This document shows, piece by piece, positions 1 through 5,685 of a DNA stretch of 5,685 bases; the stretch's first letter is position 1, and every line of letters starts with the position of its first letter. Origin of the DNA: a virus (lineage: Duplodnaviria > Heunggongvirae > Uroviricota > Caudoviricetes); the IMG/VR virus record IMGVR_UViG_3300029873_000376, positions 1 to 5,685 of that record, one strand, 5' to 3'. The notes under the pieces are model-generated. The model was not told the origin of the DNA. It made no database searches and worked only from the letters and a program-made list of their open reading frames with translations. Position numbers and translations under genes: made by a program.

Positions 1-558
1 ATGAATACAGCTATAACTTTTTCTAACGAGTCACCAAAAGTCTTTTTCAAAGATGGTCGCCTGGTTACCACCTCTCAAGCTGTTGCCGACTACTTCGATA
101 AACAACATAAACACGTTTTAGCTAAGATTGACACACTCGACTGCTCTCCCGAATTTACATCAGCCAACTTTTCGGCCGATGTTCAGACTGTCGAAATTGG
201 CAACGGCGCAGAACGTGAATCACGATGCTACCTGATCACAAAAGACGGCTTCATGTTCCTCGTAATGGGATTTACTGGCAAAAAAGCAGCCAGACTAAAA
301 GAAGCTTACATTGAAAAATTTAACGCAATGGAAGAAGAACTCCACAAACGTCCTCCTGCAGCACAAAACTCCCCCGCCCCAAATAATGGATGCGCATTAC
401 TGATCCACTTCGATAAATACGGTCAGGTCGAGTTCACAGAAAAAGTCCCCGCCGATGCGATGGTATGCACGCTGGAACGGTTTAAATTTTATCTGGAGCA
501 ACATGGGTGGATCGTTGCCCGTAAAGAACAATTGGTGGAAAGGTTGATGCGGTTTTAA
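1..558 (+). CDS. Rha-family phage regulatory protein (185 aa); the ATG sits at window position 1, so the true start could lie upstream
   Basis: ORF 1..558 with stop TAA at 556-558. The N-terminal segment KVFFKDGRLVTTSQAVADYFDKQHKHVLAKIDTL...FTSANFS matches the pattern I recall for the phage Rha N-terminal domain (short beta-strand, then S..VA..F.K.H..VLR.I..L, then nF). The C-terminal half is not recognised. Followed by a hairpin terminator. Confidence 0.75.
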   Translation: MNTAITFSNESPKVFFKDGRLVTTSQAVADYFDKQHKHVLAKIDTLDCSPEFTSANFSADVQTVEIGNGAERESRCYLITKDGFMFLVMGFTGKKAARLKEAYIEKFNAMEEELHKRPPAAQNSPAPNNGCALLIHFDKYGQVEFTEKVPADAMVCTLERFKFYLEQHGWIVARKEQLVERLMRF

Positions 559-567
559 TGAATGCAA

Positions 568-598
568 AACCCCGGATGATCACCGGGGTTAATTTTAT
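568..598. terminator. Hairpin plus T-tract, candidate bidirectional rho-independent terminator downstream of the Rha gene
   Basis: Perfect 8-bp inverted repeat AACCCCGG (568-575) / CCGGGGTT (583-590) around a 7-nt loop, followed by AATTTTAT on the plus strand. On the minus strand the stem is followed by TTTTGCATTCATT. Confidence 0.5.
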
Positions 599-684
599 CG
601 AGCGTGATTGCCGCTAATCGCCATCGCTCTGATTGAGCGTAAATCATTCAGGTTATTCAGTTCTTCCTTCTGCTCTCGCTGACG

Positions 685-855
685 TCAATAAATCCCATCA
701 TTGCGATCAACCTCATCCTTAACCATTGATGCGAGCAGTTCTTCCAGTTTCTGCGCTGACAGCTTTACCTGGTGATCTTCAGCATCTTCCCGGGCTATTG
801 TGGTTCGCGCAGTGGCTGATTTTGCTGACATCACCACAGGGGGCAGACGGACCAT
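685..855 (-). CDS. Hypothetical small protein (about 56 aa from the Met at 853-855); very uncertain
   Basis: The 3' part of the 685..966 minus ORF. The ORF's N-terminal third overlaps the repeat/hairpin at 920-955 and is probably not coding. The internal ATG at 853-855 has GGAGG about 10 nt upstream. No recognisable family; could be non-coding. Confidence 0.2.
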   Translation of the reverse strand: MVRLPPVVMSAKSATARTTIAREDAEDHQVKLSAQKLEELLASMVKDEVDRNDGIY

Positions 856-919
856 TGAACCATGGCCTCCGGAACAAATAAGGGCAAAAATAACAACCAC
901 TATCGAAAGCTCACAAACT

Positions 920-1089
920 AACCGCAGCACGTTCCTGCATACGACGTGTCTGCGGCATAATCCCAATGATTACTCCCTGACAGGATTTGCAGGCCACTCA
1001 ATATCAGGTGCAGTTGATGTATCAACACGATTCAACAATACCCGATATTTATTCCATGCCTCCAGCAACGATCTTTCTTCCTCCGTTGC
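920..1089. repeat. Direct repeat copy 1 (about 170 bp): 3' end of tfa plus downstream palindromic hairpin
   Basis: Manual alignment of 920-1089 with 1970-2138 gives roughly 85-90% identity at an offset of 1049-1050 bp, same orientation. The two tfa stop codons (970-972 and 2019-2021) are in register. Confidence 0.85.
922..955 (-). terminator. Hairpin 15 nt after the tfa-like stop (minus strand), candidate intrinsic terminator
   Basis: CCGCAGCACGT (922-932) pairs with ACGTGTCTGCGG (944-955), with one bulged T. On the minus strand it is followed directly by TTAGTTTGTGAGCTTT. Confidence 0.4.
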
Positions 1090-1239
1090 GATTTCCAGAT
1101 CTACAGCATCCTGCAGTGGCGCAATATACTCACTGAATTCCTGGATGTAGAACTGTGTGGTGACGGTCTTCCAGCCATTCGGCTCCTGCTGTATCGAAGC
1201 ATACCAGGCTATTTCAATATCGCTATGCTGCGGCAGCAT
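970..1239 (-). CDS. tfa: Short tail fibre assembly (Tfa)-like protein, 89 aa: novel N-terminal about 40 aa fused to the conserved Tfa C-terminal segment
   Basis: The C-terminus [51 protein letters not shown] closely matches the lambda Tfa C-terminus as I recall it ([44 protein letters not shown]). AAGGGG sits 4 nt upstream of the ATG at 1237-1239. At 89 aa it is much shorter than canonical Tfa (about 190 aa). Confidence 0.7.
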
Positions 1240-1295
1240 TTAACCCCTTGTAATTCATCGCCATAATTGATTTAATTCACAAATAAAACTATAAC
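1239..1295 (+). promoter_or_regulatory. AT-rich divergent intergenic region with candidate sigma70-like elements for the methyltransferase gene
   Basis: Candidate -10 CATAAT (1262-1267) with a weak -35 TTTAAC (1239-1244, 17-bp spacer). A second pair, TTGATT (1267-1272) and TATAAC (1290-1295), has 17-bp spacing but would put the transcription start inside the annotated start codon. Consensus matching by eye only. Confidence 0.2.
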
Positions 1296-1964
1296 ATGGT
1301 GAAATCAATGAAAAAAAACACAGATGATGGGGCTAAAATTTACACACCACTTACCCTAAAGCTTTATGACTGGTGGGTTTTGGGAGTATCAAATCGGCTT
1401 GCATGGGGATGTCCTACAAAGGAACACCTTCTTCCACACTTTCTGGAACATGTAGGTAACAACCATCTGGATATTGGTGTTGGAACTGGGTTTTACCTTA
1501 CTCACGTACCTGAGAGTAGTCTGATATCTTTAATGGATTTGAACGAAGCTAGCCTGAACGCGGCATCTACAAGGGCTGGGGAATCAAAAATTAAACATAA
1601 AATTAGCCATGATGTTTTTGAACCTTATCCCGCGGCGTTACATGGTCAATTTGATTCCATTTCCATGTTTTACCTTCTTCACTGCCTGCCTGGAAATATA
1701 TCTACAAAAAGCTGTGTAATACGCAATGCGGCGCAGGCCTTAACTGACGATGGAACTCTATACGGAGCCACAATTCTTGGCGATGGAGTTGTGCACAATA
1801 GCTTCGGTCAAAAACTGATGCGCATTTACAATCAGAAAGGCATCTTTTCAAACACAAAAGATTCCGAAGAAGGCTTAACACATATACTCTCAGAGCATTT
1901 CGAGAATGTTAAAACCAAGGTTCAAGGTACTGTAGTAATGTTTTCCGCTTCAGGGAAAAAATAG
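1296..1964 (+). CDS. Class I (Rossmann-fold) SAM-dependent methyltransferase, 222 aa; alternative start at ATG 1308 (218 aa) with GGTGA 5 nt upstream
   Basis: Glycine-rich motif I LDIGVGTGFY, acidic post-I motif LMDLNE, motif II-like DVFEPYPAALHGQFDSISMFYLLHCLP and motif III-like LTDDGTLY. No DPPY/NPPY or PCQ/ENV motifs, so it is probably not a DNA methyltransferase. Visibly AT-richer than the flanks. From memory, the E. coli K-12 DLP12 prophage carries a methyltransferase-like gene (ybcY) between tfa remnants, which resembles this arrangement; not verified here. Confidence 0.85.
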   Translation: MVKSMKKNTDDGAKIYTPLTLKLYDWWVLGVSNRLAWGCPTKEHLLPHFLEHVGNNHLDIGVGTGFYLTHVPESSLISLMDLNEASLNAASTRAGESKIKHKISHDVFEPYPAALHGQFDSISMFYLLHCLPGNISTKSCVIRNAAQALTDDGTLYGATILGDGVVHNSFGQKLMRIYNQKGIFSNTKDSEEGLTHILSEHFENVKTKVQGTVVMFSASGKK

Positions 1965-1969
1965 CATCC

Positions 1970-2138
1970 AACCGCAGCACGTTCTTGCTTAAGACGTGCT
2001 GCGGCATAATCCCAATGATTACTCCCTGACAGGGTTCGTAGGCCACTCAATATCAGGTGCAGTTGATGTATCAACACGGTTCAGCAACACCCGATACTTC
2101 TTCCAGGCTTCCAGCAACGGAGTTTCTTCCTCCGTTGC
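1970..2138. repeat. Direct repeat copy 2 (about 170 bp): tfa 3' remnant plus palindromic hairpin
   Basis: See copy 1. This copy begins 6 nt after the methyltransferase stop codon (TAG, 1962-1964). Confidence 0.85.
1972..2004. terminator. Perfect palindromic hairpin between the convergent methyltransferase gene and the tfa remnant; candidate bidirectional terminator
   Basis: CCGCAGCACGT (1972-1982) and ACGTGCTGCGG (1994-2004) form a perfect 11-bp stem that can extend to about 14 bp with one bulge. On the minus strand a T6 run lies about 10 nt past the stem (TTGGATGCTATTTTTT). There is no T-tract on the plus strand. Confidence 0.4.
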
Positions 2139-2147
2139 ATATACAGC
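2019..2147 (-). pseudogene. tfa: Start-less remnant of a tfa 3' end (42 codons)
   Basis: Minus-strand translation gives [42 protein letters not shown] then stop (TAA at 2019-2021). An in-frame TGA lies immediately upstream (2148-2150) and there is no start codon. It is homologous to the C-terminus of the 970..1239 ORF. Confidence 0.65.
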
Positions 2148-2157
2148 TCACCTTTTT

Positions 2158-2451
2158 TCACCCACGATTAACCAACAGCCAGACCAGCAGACACGCCACC
2201 ACCGGCACAGCAAAATCCATCAGGCTTGCCACATCCCACGCGCGCGGATCAAAACCGCCCCACCACGGCATATTCATTCGCTTGCCATGCCCGAACATTT
2301 CAATCCAGCGATATTCTGCCTGGGTGTGTTCACGCGCAATGAAGAACGTACAACCAGCTATCGCCCCGTAAGCCCAGTTCCCGGTAAAAAGACCAATCAG
2401 TAGCTGCGCAGCCACAGCACAAAGCGCATGAAGGAAAGGTGTTATATCCAT
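2158..2451 (-). CDS. Hypothetical small membrane protein (97 aa, two predicted hydrophobic helices, Trp-rich linker)
   Basis: Consensus SD AGGAGG lies 4 nt upstream of the ATG (2449-2451) and directly follows the stop of the upstream gene. Hydrophobic segments FLHALCAVAAQLLIGLFTGNWAYGAIAGCTFFIA and ASLMDFAVPVVACLLVWLLV flank a charged, Trp-rich loop. No family recognised. Confidence 0.55.
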   Translation of the reverse strand: MDITPFLHALCAVAAQLLIGLFTGNWAYGAIAGCTFFIAREHTQAEYRWIEMFGHGKRMNMPWWGGFDPRAWDVASLMDFAVPVVACLLVWLLVNRG

Positions 2452-2461
2452 TACTCCTCCT

Positions 2462-3166
2462 TTATCCGATATCGCTTCGGGAAACGGATAACAACTTTAA
2501 TTCTGACTCAAGTTCATCAACTCTTTCAGTCAGCTTCTGGATATGGTGAATCAGTGGAACAACCAGACGTTCGTACATTACACCTTCGGCAACAAGGCCA
2601 TTGCTGGAAATAGCTTCCGGTGCATCATCTTCGTTAGCTGGTCGCCAGTGTACAAACTGAGGGGCAATTTCTCCTACTTCCTCGGCAATCAATCCGTAGA
2701 ATCCCCAGTCACGCCTGTCATTTGCGCATTGTGACCTGTACCACACAGGGCGCATCCTGAAAATGAGATCGGCGTGCTCTGAATCTATTGTCTCTACTGA
2801 ATGTTTATAGCGGATAGACGATGTTGACCGCAGCACAGACGAAATTGCGGGGTCAGGATTAAGATAAAGGTTTGCCGCCGCTGTAGTCGTGCCCAATCCC
2901 CACAAATAAAACGCTTCACGGCCAGTCAACGGGTAAAAATCTCCACCATAACGACCGCTTTCCAGAGCGTTCACTTCCAGTTTGTTTTTCAGCTTATTAT
3001 CAACTTCAGTTTTTGTGTATCTGGTGCTGATATCCTGCTTTGCACTGGTCATATCAGCCTGAAGCGTTGATACTTTTCCGTTAATTGAGGAAATATCTTC
3101 CTTGGCTTTACTGACATCTCCCTTTAACGTGGTGATGTCTCCCGGAATTACTGTCGATGTAGCCAT
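2462..3166 (-). CDS. Tail-fibre-like protein (234 aa) with C-terminal intramolecular-chaperone-like (peptidase S74-type) domain
   Basis: GGGAG lies 4 nt upstream of the ATG (3164-3166). Residues about 112-225 (S-S-I-R-Y-K...ETID...LIFRMRPVWY...WGFYGLIAEEVGEIAPQFV...GVMYERLVVPLIHHIQKL...ELESELKLL) fit the pattern I recall for the auto-cleaving C-terminal chaperone domain of endosialidase-type tailspikes and the T5 L-shaped fibre (S-D-x-R-x-K-x-N-I...L-R-P-V-x-Y...G-F-I-A-Q-E-V...P-E...L-I-x-A-I-Q-E-L). The N-terminal 70 aa are coiled-coil-like with two similar segments (LKGDVSKAKEDISS / LQADMTSAKQDIST). Confidence 0.65.
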   Translation of the reverse strand: MATSTVIPGDITTLKGDVSKAKEDISSINGKVSTLQADMTSAKQDISTRYTKTEVDNKLKNKLEVNALESGRYGGDFYPLTGREAFYLWGLGTTTAAANLYLNPDPAISSVLRSTSSIRYKHSVETIDSEHADLIFRMRPVWYRSQCANDRRDWGFYGLIAEEVGEIAPQFVHWRPANEDDAPEAISSNGLVAEGVMYERLVVPLIHHIQKLTERVDELESELKLLSVSRSDIG

Positions 3167-3175
3167 TTGTCTCCC

Positions 3176-3457
3176 TCACATCCAGCCACGAAGTTGATGT
3201 TCAACTACAACCGCGTATTCATCGAATATTGACGATTTTTTTGCATCATTAATGATGCGCACGTTTACAAAATATCCATCTTCCTTAACACATACCGGTT
3301 CGCCATCTTCAGTCAGTTCTCCGGTTTCTTTGTACACGTTACCTATCACGTCAATAAGAATATCATCCTGCATCGACTCGTCATCATAATAGCCAATGCT
3401 ATCCATAAAGGCCGAAAAGTCGGCCCTGTCTGCAAATTTGAGTGTTAAATCTTTCAT
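3176..3457 (-). CDS. Hypothetical acidic protein (93 aa), translationally coupled to stf
   Basis: Its ATG (3455-3457) overlaps the stf stop codon (TAATG). GGGGGAG sits 8 nt upstream, inside the stf 3' end. Rich in Asp/Glu; no family recognised. It occupies the position where tfa normally follows stf. Confidence 0.55.
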   Translation of the reverse strand: MKDLTLKFADRADFSAFMDSIGYYDDESMQDDILIDVIGNVYKETGELTEDGEPVCVKEDGYFVNVRIINDAKKSSIFDEYAVVVEHQLRGWM

Positions 3458-5685
3458 TAGATTGACTCCCCCATCTGAGCATCAGTCAATGCCTTGTGCC
3501 ATATTCTGAAATTCCTGACATGACCAAATAAATGACGCAACCCGGCTGTAGTCTGGCCTCCAATACGGATAATTGCGGAGTTCTGAATATAGGACCATGT
3601 GGCTTTCTTTTCGCTGGATATACGCCCGTTACTTACTGAGCACGTAGACTGATCTGACTTTACACGCATCCCCATAACCATTTTTTCAAGCGATGCGTTT
3701 TCGTTTACCCGTCTGTTAGCCAAACCTATATCACAATAAGGAAATCCGTCGTAATCTGTTGAACGACCGAAGCCAAGAATAATAGCCGCTCCGGTTTGAT
3801 GACCGCCGGTATCAAAAACACGCGGTGCTGCATTTGGCGTTTTATACCAGTTCTTATGTACCTCACAAAGAACCGTAAAAGGAAGATTATAAAGATTATT
3901 CTTAATTGGAACTGTAACTATATCGCTTGCGCGGGTCGCCGCCGTCGCTCCTGATATAATAAAAGATGATACACAAGGCCCATCTTCTACTTGTGGGGTG
4001 GCCAGATAAATATAGTCACCAGATACGGTTGCCCCGCTCTGCTTAGGAGAATACTGTATCTGAGAGCCTATTTTTAACTCCCCATCAATTGCCTGAATTG
4101 TTGCCTCTGCAAAAATCCATCCGGTAGCTTCGTCCTTTCTGACTCTCGCTGTAATTCTTGAGGCAGCACCGCCTGTCATATTAATTTCAAGCGTTTGTGT
4201 ATCAATATACGCATCACCAAGAAAAGTTGTTGCGCTACCGTCATATTTATCAAACCGGATACGCAACCTTACCTGCAGTTCTGTTTTAAAACGACATGAG
4301 GTTGTCACGTGTTTATTATCGCCTGAGACATCAACTGACTTTGTTGCAGCAATTGATGCCATATTAATGGCTGAGGTTTGCCCAATCAGAGAATCGTTGC
4401 AGACAAACTTTCCATAGGTAAAACCAAAATTATCCGTCCCTGTTTCGGGCACATCCATATTTGACGATCGCCCCCAACTGGCAGGGCTTTCCGAATTGAG
4501 CATGTAGTTTGTTCTTTGCCCCTCAATAAGCAGGCCATCACGTTCAAATCGTGGCTCGTCAATGGCAGCCTCTGTCAGCACACCAGATTTGTTAATATAG
4601 GTTGCTTTCGATGCACGTTTAAACTTAACAATCTTGTCGCCAGGCATCGTTATTTCATCGTCACCAATAACAATTTTTTTATATGATGGCGAAAAGCCCG
4701 TAATCATATCCAGCGAATCGTTAAATGGTATCCACACATCAGGCAGCGGCTGTAAGACATATTTATACGGCTCCGCAGCCTGGCTTGCGTACTCTCTGGC
4801 TGCATCTTCGCTTGCTTTAGCTGCCGTCTGGCTTGCTGCCGATGCTTTCGCTGAGTTCGCAGCCGCTGTTTCGCTCACCTTTGCGTTGGTTTCACTGGTT
4901 TTTGCTGCTTTTTGACTGTTAGCTGATGCAGTGGCAGAAGCAGCCGCCGCGCTTGCAGAACTGGCTGCGGCACTCTCGCTTTGGGCCGCTGCATCCTGAC
5001 TGCTTTTCGCCGCAGTTTCACTGGCTTTGGCATTCGTTTCGCTGGTCTTCGCTGCCGCCTGGCTGGACTTTGCGTTAGTTTCACTCGTCTTCGCAGCTTT
5101 CTGGCTGTTAGCCGCAGCAGTTGCTGATCCAGCTGCTGAAGTCGCAGAACCGGCTGCCGCGCTCTCGCTTTGGGCTGCTGCAACCTGGCTGTTTTTTGCT
5201 GCAGTTTCACTGGCTTTAGCATTCGTTTCGCTGGTCTTCGCTGCCGCCTGTGCGCTGTTAGCTGCATTCGTTTCTGAGGTTTTCGCCGCGTTCTTCGATG
5301 ATGCCGCTGCAGTTTCGGATTTCTTTGCCGCCGCTGCGCTCTGAGAGGCGGCTTCAGCGTTGCGTGCCGCTTCTTCCACCATTGCCTCAAAACGACGCAA
5401 TGCCTCCGGCATGACATCATCTTCCGTCATGGCACCGAGAAAATCATTCAGCGTACCTGGTCTGGAACCTTCATAGACGGTAATGGTTCCGGCATGTGAA
5501 GGCGGAAAACCTTCAACAAGCAGGATAACGCTGTACTGGCCATACTCAACATCCATGCTGTAACGCCCGGCTTCATCCGGATTTTCAGAGGCCACCGTGT
5601 TCACCAGTACCGTGGTACTGTTACGTTTTGCTTTCAGCTGGATTGTGCAGTTCTGTACCGGTTTTCCTGTGCCGTCTTTCAGTAC
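3457..5685 (-). CDS. stf: Side tail fibre protein (Stf-like), 5'-partial: the reading frame is open to the window edge
   Basis: The minus-strand frame is open from 5685 (VLKDGTGKPVQNCTIQ...) through the listed Met at 5604. The N-terminus NTVASENPDEAGRYSMDVEYGQYSVIL.V.GFPPSHAGTITVYE...PGTLNDFL matches the lambda Stf / E. coli prophage side tail fibre N-terminus as I recall it. This is followed by an Ala/Ser/Thr-rich repetitive region and a 440-aa C-terminal domain ending ...LFGHVRNFRIWHKALTDAQMGESI. Confidence 0.9.
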   Translation of the reverse strand, partial: VLKDGTGKPVQNCTIQLKAKRNSTTVLVNTVASENPDEAGRYSMDVEYGQYSVILLVEGFPPSHAGTITVYEGSRPGTLNDFLGAMTEDDVMPEALRRFEAMVEEAARNAEAASQSAAAAKKSETAAASSKNAAKTSETNAANSAQAAAKTSETNAKASETAAKNSQVAAAQSESAAAGSATSAAGSATAAANSQKAAKTSETNAKSSQAAAKTSETNAKASETAAKSSQDAAAQSESAAASSASAAAASATASANSQKAAKTSETNAKVSETAAANSAKASAASQTAAKASEDAAREYASQAAEPYKYVLQPLPDVWIPFNDSLDMITGFSPSYKKIVIGDDEITMPGDKIVKFKRASKATYINKSGVLTEAAIDEPRFERDGLLIEGQRTNYMLNSESPASWGRSSNMDVPETGTDNFGFTYGKFVCNDSLIGQTSAINMASIAATKSVDVSGDNKHVTTSCRFKTELQVRLRIRFDKYDGSATTFLGDAYIDTQTLEINMTGGAASRITARVRKDEATGWIFAEATIQAIDGELKIGSQIQYSPKQSGATVSGDYIYLATPQVEDGPCVSSFIISGATAATRASDIVTVPIKNNLYNLPFTVLCEVHKNWYKTPNAAPRVFDTGGHQTGAAIILGFGRSTDYDGFPYCDIGLANRRVNENASLEKMVMGMRVKSDQSTCSVSNGRISSEKKATWSYIQNSAIIRIGGQTTAGLRHLFGHVRNFRIWHKALTDAQMGESI
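4823..5250. repeat. Imperfect tandem repeat, period about 189 bp (63 codons), roughly 2.3 copies, inside the stf shaft region
   Basis: GCAGTTTCACTGGCTTT(A/G)GCATTCGTTTCGCTGGTCTTCGCTGCCGCCTG occurs at 5012 and 5201. The protein units AAKTSETNAKASETAAKNSQ...NSQKAAKTSETNAKSSQ and AAKTSETNAKASETAAKSSQ...NSQKAAKTSETNAKVSE are near-identical. Confidence 0.8.

Follow-up and report, generated by a model that had tools for sequence, protein, structure and literature searches.

Introduction

The moron concept (Hendrix/Juhala), of which lom and bor of lambda and the effector loci downstream of the tail-fibre genes in EHEC prophages are examples, covers accessory genes of the kind that lambdoid phages accumulate at their tail-fibre-distal end. 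The conserved C-terminal domain of Tfa reportedly forms a mosaic boundary in fibre-gene exchange (Haggard-Ljungquist/Sandmeier; Hendrix & Duda). When markers are inserted into tfaQ or stfR of defective prophages, lambda captures them via stf/tfa homology, at a frequency of ~2e-6 and in dependence on Red-beta or RecA (PMC3945230).

The DNA analysed here, referred to as the window, is the whole stretch of 5,685 nucleotides (positions 1 to 5,685 of IMG/VR record IMGVR_UViG_3300029873_000376), and is the right (tail-fibre-distal) end of a lambdoid prophage. Escherichia coli BEC1-S17-ESBL-09 matches it at 100%, and the prophage there adjoins trp/yciEFG/ompW. Prophage DLP12 of K-12, with tfaD, ybcY on the opposite strand and tfaX, displays 97% nucleotide identity over window 993-2138. 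Judged by its sequence, the module is the tfaD-ybcY-tfaX of DLP12, common in E. coli prophages and already known. The value of the present analysis is mainly corrective: the repeat around the methyltransferase gene is real, yet the module is familiar and ordinary. Among complete E. coli genomes, the methyltransferase gene was found in 3825 of 5426 (4839 places) and the segment specific to the short tfa-like ORF in 3822 (4815 places), the former being almost always accompanied by the latter. In the literature searched on ybcY, tfaX/tfaD, ea47 and CssrB, neither the gene nor the hairpin is the subject of a functional study. The coordinates of all features are given in Table 1.

Table 1. Features of the window, with positions counted from its first nucleotide
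Feature	Position	Strand	Remarks
DUF4376-type tail-fibre chaperone gene, 3' relic	595..873	-	RefSeq pseudogene; apparently an older layer of fibre-module replacement
Post-hairpin segment	898..919	-	GTGAGCTTTCGATAGTG on the minus strand; conserved native continuation after the tfa hairpin
Direct repeat copy A	920..1089	-	Hairpin A stem (922-955) and last 39 codons of the short tfa-like ORF
89-aa chimeric ORF, TfaX-like, PHROG 2341	970..1239	-	tfa end fused to the cassette flank
Cassette proper	~1147..1969 (823 bp)	+	Upstream flank, promoter-like region and methyltransferase gene
Promoter-like region and ribosome-binding site	1267..1302	+	TTGATT 1267-1272, 17-nt spacer, TATAAC 1290-1295, GGTGA 1298-1302
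YbcY-family class I SAM-dependent methyltransferase	1308..1964	+	218 aa; annotated from ATG 1296 as 222 aa
Direct repeat copy B	1970..2138	-	Hairpin B stem (1972-2004) and last 40 codons of tfa (2019-2138), without start codon
97-aa membrane protein (PHROG 1443)	2158..2451	-	Last gene of the putative replacement tail-fibre module
Putative replacement fibre module	2462..5685	-	stf, 93-aa protein and 234-aa fibre protein
234-aa fibre protein with Peptidase_S74 intramolecular chaperone domain	2462-3166	-	Replacement fibre module
93-aa protein	3176-3457	-	Replacement fibre module
stf	3457 to window end	-	Replacement fibre module

Direct repeats and hairpins

Global alignment of copies A and B gave 153 identical columns of 170 (90.0%), which bears out the two ~170-bp direct repeats that a preliminary description of the window had put at 85-90% identity. 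The repeat search resolved them as 950-1089 versus 1999-2138 (140 nt, 91%) and 920-948 versus 1970-1998 (29 nt, 90%), the two blocks being offset by a 1-nt indel, and the MAFFT alignment agrees. The copies have 81 exact 8-mers in common, as against a maximum of 7 in 1000 shuffles. No tandem repeats were found in 500-2600. Each copy was also correctly described as the last ~40 codons of tfa plus a hairpin, and consists of 39-40 codons with a GC-rich palindrome of 33-34 nt. Minus-strand translation of both copies yields the Tfa C-terminus, ATEEE(R/T)(S/P)LLEAW(N/K) followed by 20 residues not shown here and (A/T)NPVRE. In terms of Pfam Caudo_TAP (131 positions), the copy A ORF matches 75-130 and copy B 95-130. 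In relatives keeping a full-length tfa, the homology of copy A extends from 920 to 1146 (227 bp) and also takes in ~20 nt past the hairpin (898-919); the repeat is only 170 bp long in the window because copy B is truncated at 2138/2139.

Hairpins A and B have stems of 11-14 bp, with folding energies of −18.5 to −23.6 kcal mol−1 (folded with the plus-strand flank) and z-scores of −2.5 to −5.3 (four flank folds, both strands). At least 10 pairs are retained in 20/20 hairpin variants, with compensatory stem changes of C:G to A:T and C:G to T:A. The hairpin tails, GGUUAGUUUGU for A and GGUUGGAUGCUAUUUUUU for B, both lack a good U-tract, and the terminator scan reported a 5-bp sub-stem of hairpin A only and nothing at hairpin B. 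Hairpin B, a part of the tfa repeat, begins its strong stem 7 nt after the end of the methyltransferase gene, is without a U-tract on the plus strand, and is placed between this gene and the convergent tfa relic. The hairpin is a candidate two-way terminator: the late operon and the methyltransferase gene converge on it, and it probably stops transcripts from either side.

Cassette and promoter-like region

The segment between the repeats contains 40.0% G+C, against 45.8% and 47.8% in the flanks, and is AT-rich as had been noted. The borders of the cassette are evident from the end of tfa homology by 1146 and the beginning of repeat B at 1970. Two Citrobacter loci (L270 and L272) carry window 1153-1976 at 91.8%, without tfa and without hairpin, while the homology of Salmonella and of locus L275 begins at 1266/1267, i.e. 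at the −35 hexamer. Enterobacter homologues (61-64% amino acid identity) sit in non-phage chromosome.

The promoter-like region is conserved in Citrobacter, Salmonella and L275, and the same hexamers are listed for K-12 ybcY as an RpoD site, along with an H-NS site (PMC3946193). The consensus promoter scan did not call TTGATT-17-TATAAC. Taking TATAAC as the −10 element places the transcript start within or after the conserved GGTGA, so that the promoter assignment is uncertain.

Methyltransferase

The profile search, proposed in the preliminary description for placing the methyltransferase in a family, assigned it to PHROG 2132 (YbcY; E=4.2e-157), residues 5-222 aligning with profile positions 1-218 of 218. 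Its position on the opposite strand, between a tfa end and a tfaX-type ORF, is also that of YbcY. The first residue of the homologues in other genera corresponds to position 1308. Pfam Methyltransf_12 was matched with 37.5 bits (cut-off 30), as were Methyltransf_23/25/11. The AlphaFold2 model (mean pLDDT 90.4) shows alternating strands and helices. The enzyme thus fits the class I SAM methyltransferases, which are defined by a Rossmann-like fold, a glycine-rich motif I, an acidic residue after strand 2 and motifs II/III; it has LDIGVGTG as motif I and the invariant D77 (DLN). NCBIfam and PDB sequence searches returned only weak generic methyltransferase matches (CpaM, RquA, PmtA, JHAMT, UbiG).

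The best PDB neighbours are JHAMT, bacterial phosphatidylethanolamine N-methyltransferase, SgvM and RebM; since TM-scores of the structural neighbours are 0.55-0.67 and identities 13-21%, the substrate class follows from them only tentatively. Its substrate is most likely a small molecule or a lipid, and the enzyme would be made by the lysogen. As orphan DNA methylases are frequent in phages, a role in DNA modification or anti-restriction/defence, by which the enzyme would protect the phage or exclude other phages, was also considered; the only PADLOC match in its favour was very weak (mad2, E=0.0096, 12.8 bits) and falls short of a defence-system match. However, the motif search found neither [DNS]PP[YFW] nor PCQ in the ORF, in agreement with the earlier statement that SAM-binding motifs are present without a DNA-methyltransferase motif. 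Moreover, the 218 aa include no target-recognition domain. The top 50 fold neighbours are small-molecule, lipid, natural-product or uncharacterised methyltransferases, none being described as a nucleic-acid methylase, and the homologues are ordinary chromosomal genes in Enterobacter and other genera. PADLOC gave no matches with the neighbouring small proteins. With motif search, fold neighbours and PADLOC all negative, a defence role is extremely improbable and was rejected; the enzyme is not a DNA methylase.

Disruption of the ORF in all relatives had been named as one finding that would speak against a cargo cassette; the ORF is intact in 59/61 core variants. The changes recorded, 16 synonymous and 14 non-synonymous, exceed the synonymous proportion of 22% that is expected (p=2e-4). 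An intact and constrained methyltransferase that has never been characterised is carried in prophages of ~70% of complete E. coli genomes.

Short tfa-like ORF

Codons 32-89 (973-1146) of the 89-aa ORF derive from the tfa C-terminal domain and codons 1-31 (1147-1239) from the cassette upstream flank. PHROG 2341 matches the ORF over its full length, Pfam Caudo_TAP over a part only, and RefSeq labels it a partial tfa pseudogene. The stretch 1153-1239 also occurs in Citrobacter, in loci devoid of tfa. The half that had been regarded as a novel 5' half of the ORF therefore belongs to the cassette flank, and as these codons accompany the methyltransferase in tfa-less Citrobacter, the ORF is a chimera. 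Neither this ORF nor copy B has the two domains of Tfa (PF02413), of which the N-terminal, fibre-binding one is variable and the C-terminal one conserved, both being fragments of the family and not members.

The ORF might still be a working C-terminal-only Tfa, or the region a small RNA (Rfam IS009-like), co-selected with the methyltransferase as a two-gene module. Linkage is nearly complete (3822 versus 3825 genomes), but two stretches of DNA separated by 57 bp would be linked in any case. Of 61 core variants, 49 retain an ORF of 88-90 aa; it is shortened or lost in the other 12, and has 61 aa in K-12. The synonymous excess in the tfa-derived part (24:18, p=1e-6) can come from functional tfa alleles via recombination, and does not extend to the cassette-derived codons (4:6, p=0.11). 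A divergent promoter is listed for K-12 tfaX (PMC3946193), but its −10 element overlaps the start codon of the ORF, and the N-terminal fibre-binding half of Tfa is absent. Rfam IS009 (RF02111) scores 112.5 bits at 1013-1216 and 68.3 at 2062-2160, both below its gathering threshold of 117; in K-12 the model (227.8 bits) does no more than cover the 3' half of the tfaD coding sequence, and so adds nothing beyond tfa homology. With CssrB also below the Rfam threshold, the small-RNA reading was rejected, and a co-selected two-gene module is altogether decidedly unlikely.

Copy B and neighbouring fibre modules

Copy B has no start codon, and an in-frame TGA is present at 2148-2150. It had been viewed as an arm left by cargo gain, a view that its structure does not sustain: it is a start-less relic, the scar left as a fibre module with S74 chaperone and 97-aa protein replaced stf-tfa. 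The junction of the 97-aa-protein module with the tfa relic lies at 2138/2139, and phage 21 and ev243 have the same 97-aa gene followed by the same tfa fragment. Of 139 locus fragments, 89 show the commonest arrangement, in which an intact 194-aa tfa ends in copy B; the fibre side is otherwise as in the window in 17 fragments, another tfa in 14, ipaH-like in 11, invertase in 2 and non-phage in 5. All these counts are approximate, given the redundancy of the IMG/VR loci, many of which stop at a prophage-call border. As regards the DUF4376-type relic at 595-873, locus L066 has an intact 207-aa chaperone of this type adjoining stf.

Empty sites and breakpoints

The conserved core comprises the first 50 codons of the short ORF, the spacer, the methyltransferase gene and the 61 bp up to copy B. 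It is 96-100% identical in protein across ~130 loci, and the DNA changes on both sides of it. Where the homology with other contexts breaks off, it does so in or next to copy A (898, 993, 1015), where hairpin B ends (2004-2010), or at 2138.

Empty sites were looked for as the preliminary description had advised, and clean ones are present; they combine one tfa and the same hairpin with the sequence found after hairpin A in the window. Loci L234 and L190 and five others have one tfa and hairpin, the latter followed by TTGGATG/TTGGCTG and then GTGAAC/GATGCACTTTCGA-AGTG. The post-hairpin segment of the window aligns with the sequence after the single hairpin in L234 and L190, and with that after the second hairpin of lambda. 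Copy B diverges from the empty sites exactly at the methyltransferase stop codon. The empty-site junction type is contiguous in 615 genomes, e.g. O104:H4.

The other expectation, sites with different cargo between two tfa ends, found no counterpart among the loci compared; it is the fibre module and the downstream context that vary instead. Loci L173, L176, L179, L182 and L222 were considered as carriers of other cargo and rejected, since the interval up to their third tfa, beyond hyd-ompT, has integrase fragments and a second methyltransferase tail and is thus a neighbouring prophage remnant, not a cassette; it was not counted.

Deletion from repeat to repeat was likewise rejected as the source of the empty sites, a B-type tfa/hairpin joined to native downstream sequence being no proof of it. 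The empty sites look pre-insertion or unrelated rather than products of such deletion. Two derived deletions were observed, loss of the methyltransferase gene only in L198 and a loss reaching from the short tfa ORF into stf in L174, both with end points other than the repeats.

Proposed origin of the cassette and exchange around it

The preliminary description had proposed that the tfa 3' end served as a homologous-recombination linker for gaining or exchanging a cargo cassette. This idea finds partial support, in that the tfa end with its hairpin behaves like a mosaic junction at which breakpoints cluster, while the exchange of cargo was not observed. It is the fibre module or the downstream context that usually gets exchanged; with no alternative cargo between tfa ends, a role in 'cassette exchange' is founded on the diversity of the flanks.

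Insertion of the cassette, followed by swaps through the tfa-end/hairpin arms, is as a whole the best explanation and a fairly probable one. The duplication most likely arose once, via non-homologous insertion of the cassette, with junctions in two phage genome copies, one just past the hairpin and the other inside tfa. Such an insertion would have duplicated ~230 bp of tfa with the hairpin, and fused the cassette flank with the tfa end into the 89-aa chimeric ORF. Later, the two tfa-end/hairpin copies may have acted as homology arms for RecA- or Red-type recombination, so that fibre modules and prophage ends, to either side of the core, were swapped repeatedly and the core itself stayed unchanged. 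The swap in the window would have brought in the S74-chaperone fibre module and trimmed copy B to 40 codons. As the repeats are only 90% identical, a single duplication must either date far back or have been overwritten as exchange went on; the joining of two independent tfa alleles through recombination would give the same picture.

The divergence of 10% between the repeats may also be read as a sign that the tfa ends are only relics of two independent fibre modules stacked on one another, with the methyltransferase as a passenger and no function of the repeats as arms. In favour of this reading, a third chaperone relic, of DUF4376 type, lies just downstream and copy B is itself truncated by a module swap. 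Furthermore, tfa and methyltransferase are missing from relatives L115 and L116, where this position is occupied by Rha, stf and a DUF4376-type sequence that is longer and more diverged. However, from the first 50 codons of the short ORF to copy B, spacing and sequence are invariant in ~130 loci, and the flank changes fall inside the repeats. In addition, codons 1-31 of the short ORF are cassette flank and not a second fibre module, and a second stf remnant is absent upstream of copy A. Layered relics are for these reasons an unlikely explanation.

The placing of several breakpoints at the hairpin 3' edge (2004-2010, 898) raises another alternative, that the palindrome directed the insertion as a recombinase site, in the manner of an integron attC or of a hairpin-binding transposase. 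The hairpin recurs at the borders of cargo: it flanks the methyltransferase unit on either side, stands as two direct copies around ea47 in phage lambda, and adjoins invertase cargo and ipaH-like cargo. Its stem is maintained through compensatory changes. However, no dedicated recombinase is associated with it, the breakpoints at 993, 1015 and 2138 are inside tfa coding sequence, and the hairpin is absent from the Citrobacter cassette. A stem-loop where two genes converge has, moreover, the look of a two-way terminator, and general homologous recombination via stf/tfa has been shown experimentally (PMC3945230). Hairpin-directed insertion is thus highly improbable. It is just as doubtful that the palindrome after tfa is a dedicated cassette-boundary element for opposite-strand cargo (ybcY, ea47, invertase, ipaH-type effector); if it were, the lambdoid tail-fibre-distal end would be an integron-like cargo array.

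Comparison with known systems

The order and orientation of the parts are identical in the window and in tfaD-ybcY-tfaX (b0561-b0563, MG1655) of K-12 DLP12, and the divergent ybcY/tfaX spacer has the TTGATT-17-TATAAC motif in both. The methyltransferase is intact in the window, whereas K-12 ybcY is a pseudogene in which the start ATG has become ATA and the A-run is shorter. The short ORF has 89 aa as compared to the 61 aa of tfaX, and copy B is reduced to 40 codons, cut by a different fibre module, as compared to the near-full tfa of tfaD. The downstream context is the DUF4376 relic and Rha in the window, and appY-ompT in DLP12.

Like JHAMT (7ec0), bacterial phosphatidylethanolamine N-methyltransferase (8ys9) and UbiG (4kdr), the enzyme is of similar size and has motif I in a Rossmann-type SAM fold. 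Foldseek E values to small-molecule/lipid methyltransferases are ~1e-10 to 1e-12, and the profile E value versus JHAMT is 3.5e-6. Unlike in the characterised enzymes found, the family of the window displays the motifs YDWWVL..SN..AW.C, FYLLHCLPG and YN.KGIFSN.

The gene resembles lambdoid morons in being an extra gene of deviating base composition with its own promoter-like region, and in being present or absent in otherwise collinear phages, in the cargo hotspot after the tail-fibre genes; among 55 loci with the same tfa allele, 38 have the methyltransferase and 17 do not. Unlike these, it is framed by the duplicated part of an adjacent structural gene, and the hairpin of that gene would take the place of its own terminator. 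A classical terminator is present at the non-phage homologue in L275.

In the ea47 region of lambda, an opposite-strand accessory gene also comes right after tfa and is bracketed by two direct hairpins, the second of which is identical to hairpin A of the window and is followed by the same conserved segment. The cargo there is unrelated, however, and the hairpin alone is repeated, the tfa coding sequence not being duplicated. This hairpin-bracket geometry makes lambda an easy experimental system.

As at the known tfa mosaic boundaries, conserved tfa 3' sequence joins unrelated fibre modules in the window. Unlike at those boundaries, the conserved end occurs twice and in direct order, so that it also frames a non-fibre gene and could delete that gene. 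The tfa end with its hairpin is a clear natural example of how short conserved sequences permit host-range module swaps, in which phages keep or shed accessory genes.

Gene organization and direct repeats

The window is 100% identical to positions 2264248-2269932 (reverse strand) of E. coli BEC1-S17-ESBL-09 (NZ_AP022298.1), and its setting is the end of a lambdoid prophage adjoining trpA/yciEFG and a truncated ompW. The preliminary description of a methyltransferase gene bracketed by direct repeats of the tfa 3' end (copies A and B) is borne out, as evident from 153 identical columns out of 170 with one 1-nt indel, and from 81 exact 8-mers common to both copies as compared to at most 7 in shuffles. 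Each copy comprises the last 39-40 Tfa codons (C-terminal positions of Caudo_TAP) and a 33-34-nt palindrome with an 11-14-bp stem, and the DNA between the copies is AT-rich (40% G+C vs 46-48% outside).

Features of the window and their coordinates
Feature	Position	Strand	Remark
Rha-family gene	1-558	plus	
DUF4376 chaperone relic	595-873	minus	
Copy A	920-1089	minus	direct repeat
89-aa tfa-like ORF	970-1239	minus	followed by the second hairpin
TTGATT	1267-1272		promoter-like region
TATAAC	1290-1295		promoter-like region
GGTGA	1298-1302		before the start codon
ATG	1308		methyltransferase start codon
Class I SAM methyltransferase	1296/1308-1964	plus	
Copy B	1970-2138	minus	direct repeat
tfa fragment, 40 codons	2019-2138	minus	no start; followed by a hairpin
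97-aa membrane protein	2158-2451	minus	
234-aa fibre protein	between 93-aa and 97-aa genes	minus	Peptidase_S74 intramolecular chaperone domain
93-aa gene	between stf and 234-aa fibre protein gene	minus	
Side tail fibre gene (stf)	3457 to window end	minus	Pfam phage_tail_N

A 189-bp tandem duplication (80% identity) was recorded in stf at 4862-5239, where nested 26-nt repeats encode KTSETNAK-type repeats. The 45-aa hypothetical protein (WP_001309429.1) placed by RefSeq at 1909-2046 (minus) is probably a spurious gene call; it overlaps the tfa relic as well as hairpin B and the methyltransferase 3' end. The Rfam model IS009 ("candidate small RNA") scores 112.5 bits (1013-1216) and 68.3 bits (2062-2160) on the tfa ends of the window and 227.8 bits on K-12 tfaD, over the 3' half of its coding sequence (L188 5857-6055), and appears to describe tfa coding sequence rather than an RNA gene.

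Recombination at the tfa end

About 270 loci were fetched using the methyltransferase, Rha, the downstream hydrolase, full-length lambda-type Tfa and methyltransferase relatives as anchors. The core, which runs from the first 50 short-ORF codons through the spacer and methyltransferase gene to the end of the 61 bp preceding copy B, is invariant (96-100% protein identity); the DNA on both sides of it varies among loci. On the fibre side, copy B is continuous with an intact 194-aa tfa in 89 of 139 non-identical locus fragments; the tfa relic and 97-aa-protein module of the window occurs in 17, and the methyltransferase adjoins other tfa types in 14, an ipaH-like effector in 11 and a Pin-like invertase in 2, with 5 in non-phage context and one having too little fibre-side sequence. 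The non-fibre side carries Rha and the DUF4376 relic, hydrolase-ompT, appY-ompT or something else. Homology of the window with these contexts breaks at 898, 993, 1015, 2004-2010 and 2138, all inside the repeats or at their margins.

Empty sites, in which a single tfa is followed by the hairpin, were sought and found. The same tfa allele, with sufficient sequence downstream of it, was available in 55 loci; 38 of these carry the cassette and 17 lack it, a genuine presence/absence polymorphism. In seven of the 17, one tfa and the same hairpin lead directly into the conserved segment GTGAAC/GATGCAC-TTTCGA-AGTG, which in the window lies 3' of hairpin A. The match of copy B to these seven extends to CTGCGGTTGGATG, after which the methyltransferase stop codon follows. 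One further locus (L198) has an internal deletion removing the methyltransferase gene only, and the remaining nine differ both in the tfa C-terminus and in what lies downstream. Contiguous junctions of the empty type occur in 615 complete genomes, among them E. coli O104:H4, where the order is stf, tfa, hairpin, DinI-like gene and prophage end.

The tfa 3' end had been proposed to act as a homologous-recombination arm for gaining or exchanging cargo. The observation behind this proposal was correct and the interpretation partly so: breakpoints and variable flanks support the view that recombination has recurred at the junction formed by the tfa end and its hairpin, but alternative cargo between two tfa ends was not seen among the about 270 fetched loci.

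Other genes were encountered beside the cassette. In L066 (about 5985-7628), L088, L090 and L091, from E. coli and Shigella flexneri, a gene for a 547-aa LRR/NEL ipaH-like effector replaces copy B directly beside the methyltransferase, with a DUF4376 chaperone and then stf beyond it. In L166 (3664-4837) and L080, full tfa is separated from hairpin B by a gene for a Pin-like DNA invertase (196 aa) and by an 88-aa ORF. Convergent tfa ends or an inverted stf N-terminus occur in some other loci (L026, L103), suggesting invertible fibre segments adjoining the cassette.

Scars of fibre-module replacement

The frame of copy B upstream of its tfa homology holds a TGA at 2148-2150, and a search of it for a start codon found none. 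Phage 21 and ev243 have the 97-aa gene with the same tfa fragment, of which just 57 bp is left in phage 21. The fibre module of the window has its own S74 chaperone domain and, given what is established about that domain, should be independent of Tfa. These observations together identify copy B as the scar of a fibre-module replacement, whose crossover would have fallen within the conserved 3' part of tfa. An older scar of this kind is the DUF4376 relic downstream of copy A. In L115 and L116 its position is occupied by Rha, a DUF4376-type sequence of greater length and divergence, and stf, and both tfa and the methyltransferase are absent; the prophage end therefore stacks the chaperone-gene 3' relics of successive fibre replacements. 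In phage 21 (L005 1-2985), opposite-strand sitABCD iron/manganese transporter genes directly follow the 97-aa gene and tfa fragment, in the slot held by the methyltransferase in the window.

Limits and origin of the cassette

Citrobacter freundii encodes a 90%-identical protein within DNA matching window 1153-1976 at 91.8%, and neither tfa sequence nor hairpin was found on either side of it. In Salmonella and an unidentified enterobacterial contig, homology runs from 1266/1267, exactly at the TTGATT hexamer, to the stop codon; in Enterobacter it is limited to the coding region, the gene there being part of the ordinary chromosome with dcp and ydfG as neighbours. The conserved functional unit is thus the promoter-like region and ORF. 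The same TTGATT/TATAAC hexamers of K-12 ybcY are listed as an RpoD site, together with an H-NS site (PMC3946193). The DNA that entered the phage would, from these limits, be about 1147-1969. The 89-aa ORF takes its start codon and first 31 codons from the upstream flank of the cassette and the rest from tfa, and is therefore an insertion-made chimera, not a second chaperone gene.

A single non-homologous insertion accounts for the arrangement most economically; its left junction would lie immediately beyond the hairpin and its right junction within the tfa of another genome copy. Such an event would have duplicated about 230 bp of tfa and hairpin and created the chimeric ORF. Later homologous exchange via the two conserved copies would have replaced the fibre module and downstream end many times; a 10% divergence between the repeats is consistent with overwriting of this sort. 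We infer both that one event founded the arrangement and that these very repeats were used; exchange via stf/tfa homology is known experimentally, lambda capturing tfaQ/stfR markers at about 2e-6, mainly by Red-beta (PMC3945230). A 6-bp inverted pair, TGGATG (1142-1147) and CATCCA (1965-1970), marks the cassette limits, and both the empty site L234 and the Citrobacter cassette have TGGATG at their right-hand junction; this could be junction microhomology or chance.

The hairpin

A stem of at least 10 pairs is kept in all 20 hairpin sequence variants found, with at least two compensatory changes (C:G to A:T and C:G to T:A). The hairpin is poor in its U-tract and lies between the convergent late operon and methyltransferase gene. 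In L275, which carries a non-phage homologue, a textbook terminator occupies the equivalent position; this fits the idea that the phage hairpin may have taken over this role.

The methyltransferase

Of 61 distinct core variants, 59 retain the ORF intact, and its changes show a synonymous excess (16:14 synonymous to nonsynonymous vs 22% synonymous expected, p=2e-4). Homologues at 56-68% identity occur across Enterobacterales, named solely 'class I SAM-dependent methyltransferase'. The family has invariant motifs of its own, YDWWVL..SN..AW.C, HLDIGVGTG, DLN, FYLLHCLPG and YN.KGIFSN. The AlphaFold2 model is confident (mean pLDDT 90.4), and its best PDB neighbours (JHAMT, bacterial phosphatidylethanolamine N-methyltransferase, SgvM, RebM and phosphoethanolamine methyltransferase; TM-scores 0.55-0.67) are small-molecule, lipid or natural-product methyltransferases; profile-to-PDB and NCBIfam matches point weakly in the same direction. 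Searches of the protein for DNA-methylase motifs and for defence-system matches found none. The modelled fold tentatively suggests a small molecule or lipid as substrate, and the gene is presumably expressed in the lysogen.

Distribution and known counterparts

Of 5426 complete E. coli genomes, 3825 contain the gene (4839 places) and 3822 contain the DNA that distinguishes the short tfa-like ORF and the spacer (4815 places); the two are therefore practically inseparable. On contigs from metagenome bins assigned to Bacillus, Planococcaceae and Segatella copri (L089, L094, L100), the methyltransferase protein is 97-99% identical to its E. coli prophage counterpart, with the adjoining copy-B tfa end on L089 and L100 and the short tfa-like ORF on L094; binning contamination is the most likely explanation.

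A methyltransferase between tfa ends is a known module, and a very common one. DLP12 of E. coli K-12 has tfaD, opposite-strand ybcY and tfaX at 97% identity to window 993-2138; its ybcY is a pseudogene, and appY and ompT follow tfaX. At 1308-1319 the methyltransferase start codon precedes a run of eight A (ATGAAAAAAAAC), plausibly a slippage site; in K-12 (L188 about 6790-6830) the start is changed to ATA and the run is one base shorter, which may account for the pseudogene. Phages ev243, PhiR49_1 and PhiR29_1 share the tfaD-ybcY-tfaX-type unit, the gene being named 'YbcY' in the PhiR records.

The remaining interest lies in a widespread, uncharacterised methyltransferase and in the recurrent hairpin-bracket arrangement. 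Phage lambda (NC_001416 19500-24500) likewise has two direct copies of the palindrome (3074-3109 and 4663-4696 of that locus), the second identical to hairpin A of the window and followed by the conserved segment CTGGCTGGTGAACTTCCGATAGTG. The pair brackets opposite-strand ea47 in a geometry like that round the methyltransferase, which is therefore general and not peculiar to ybcY.
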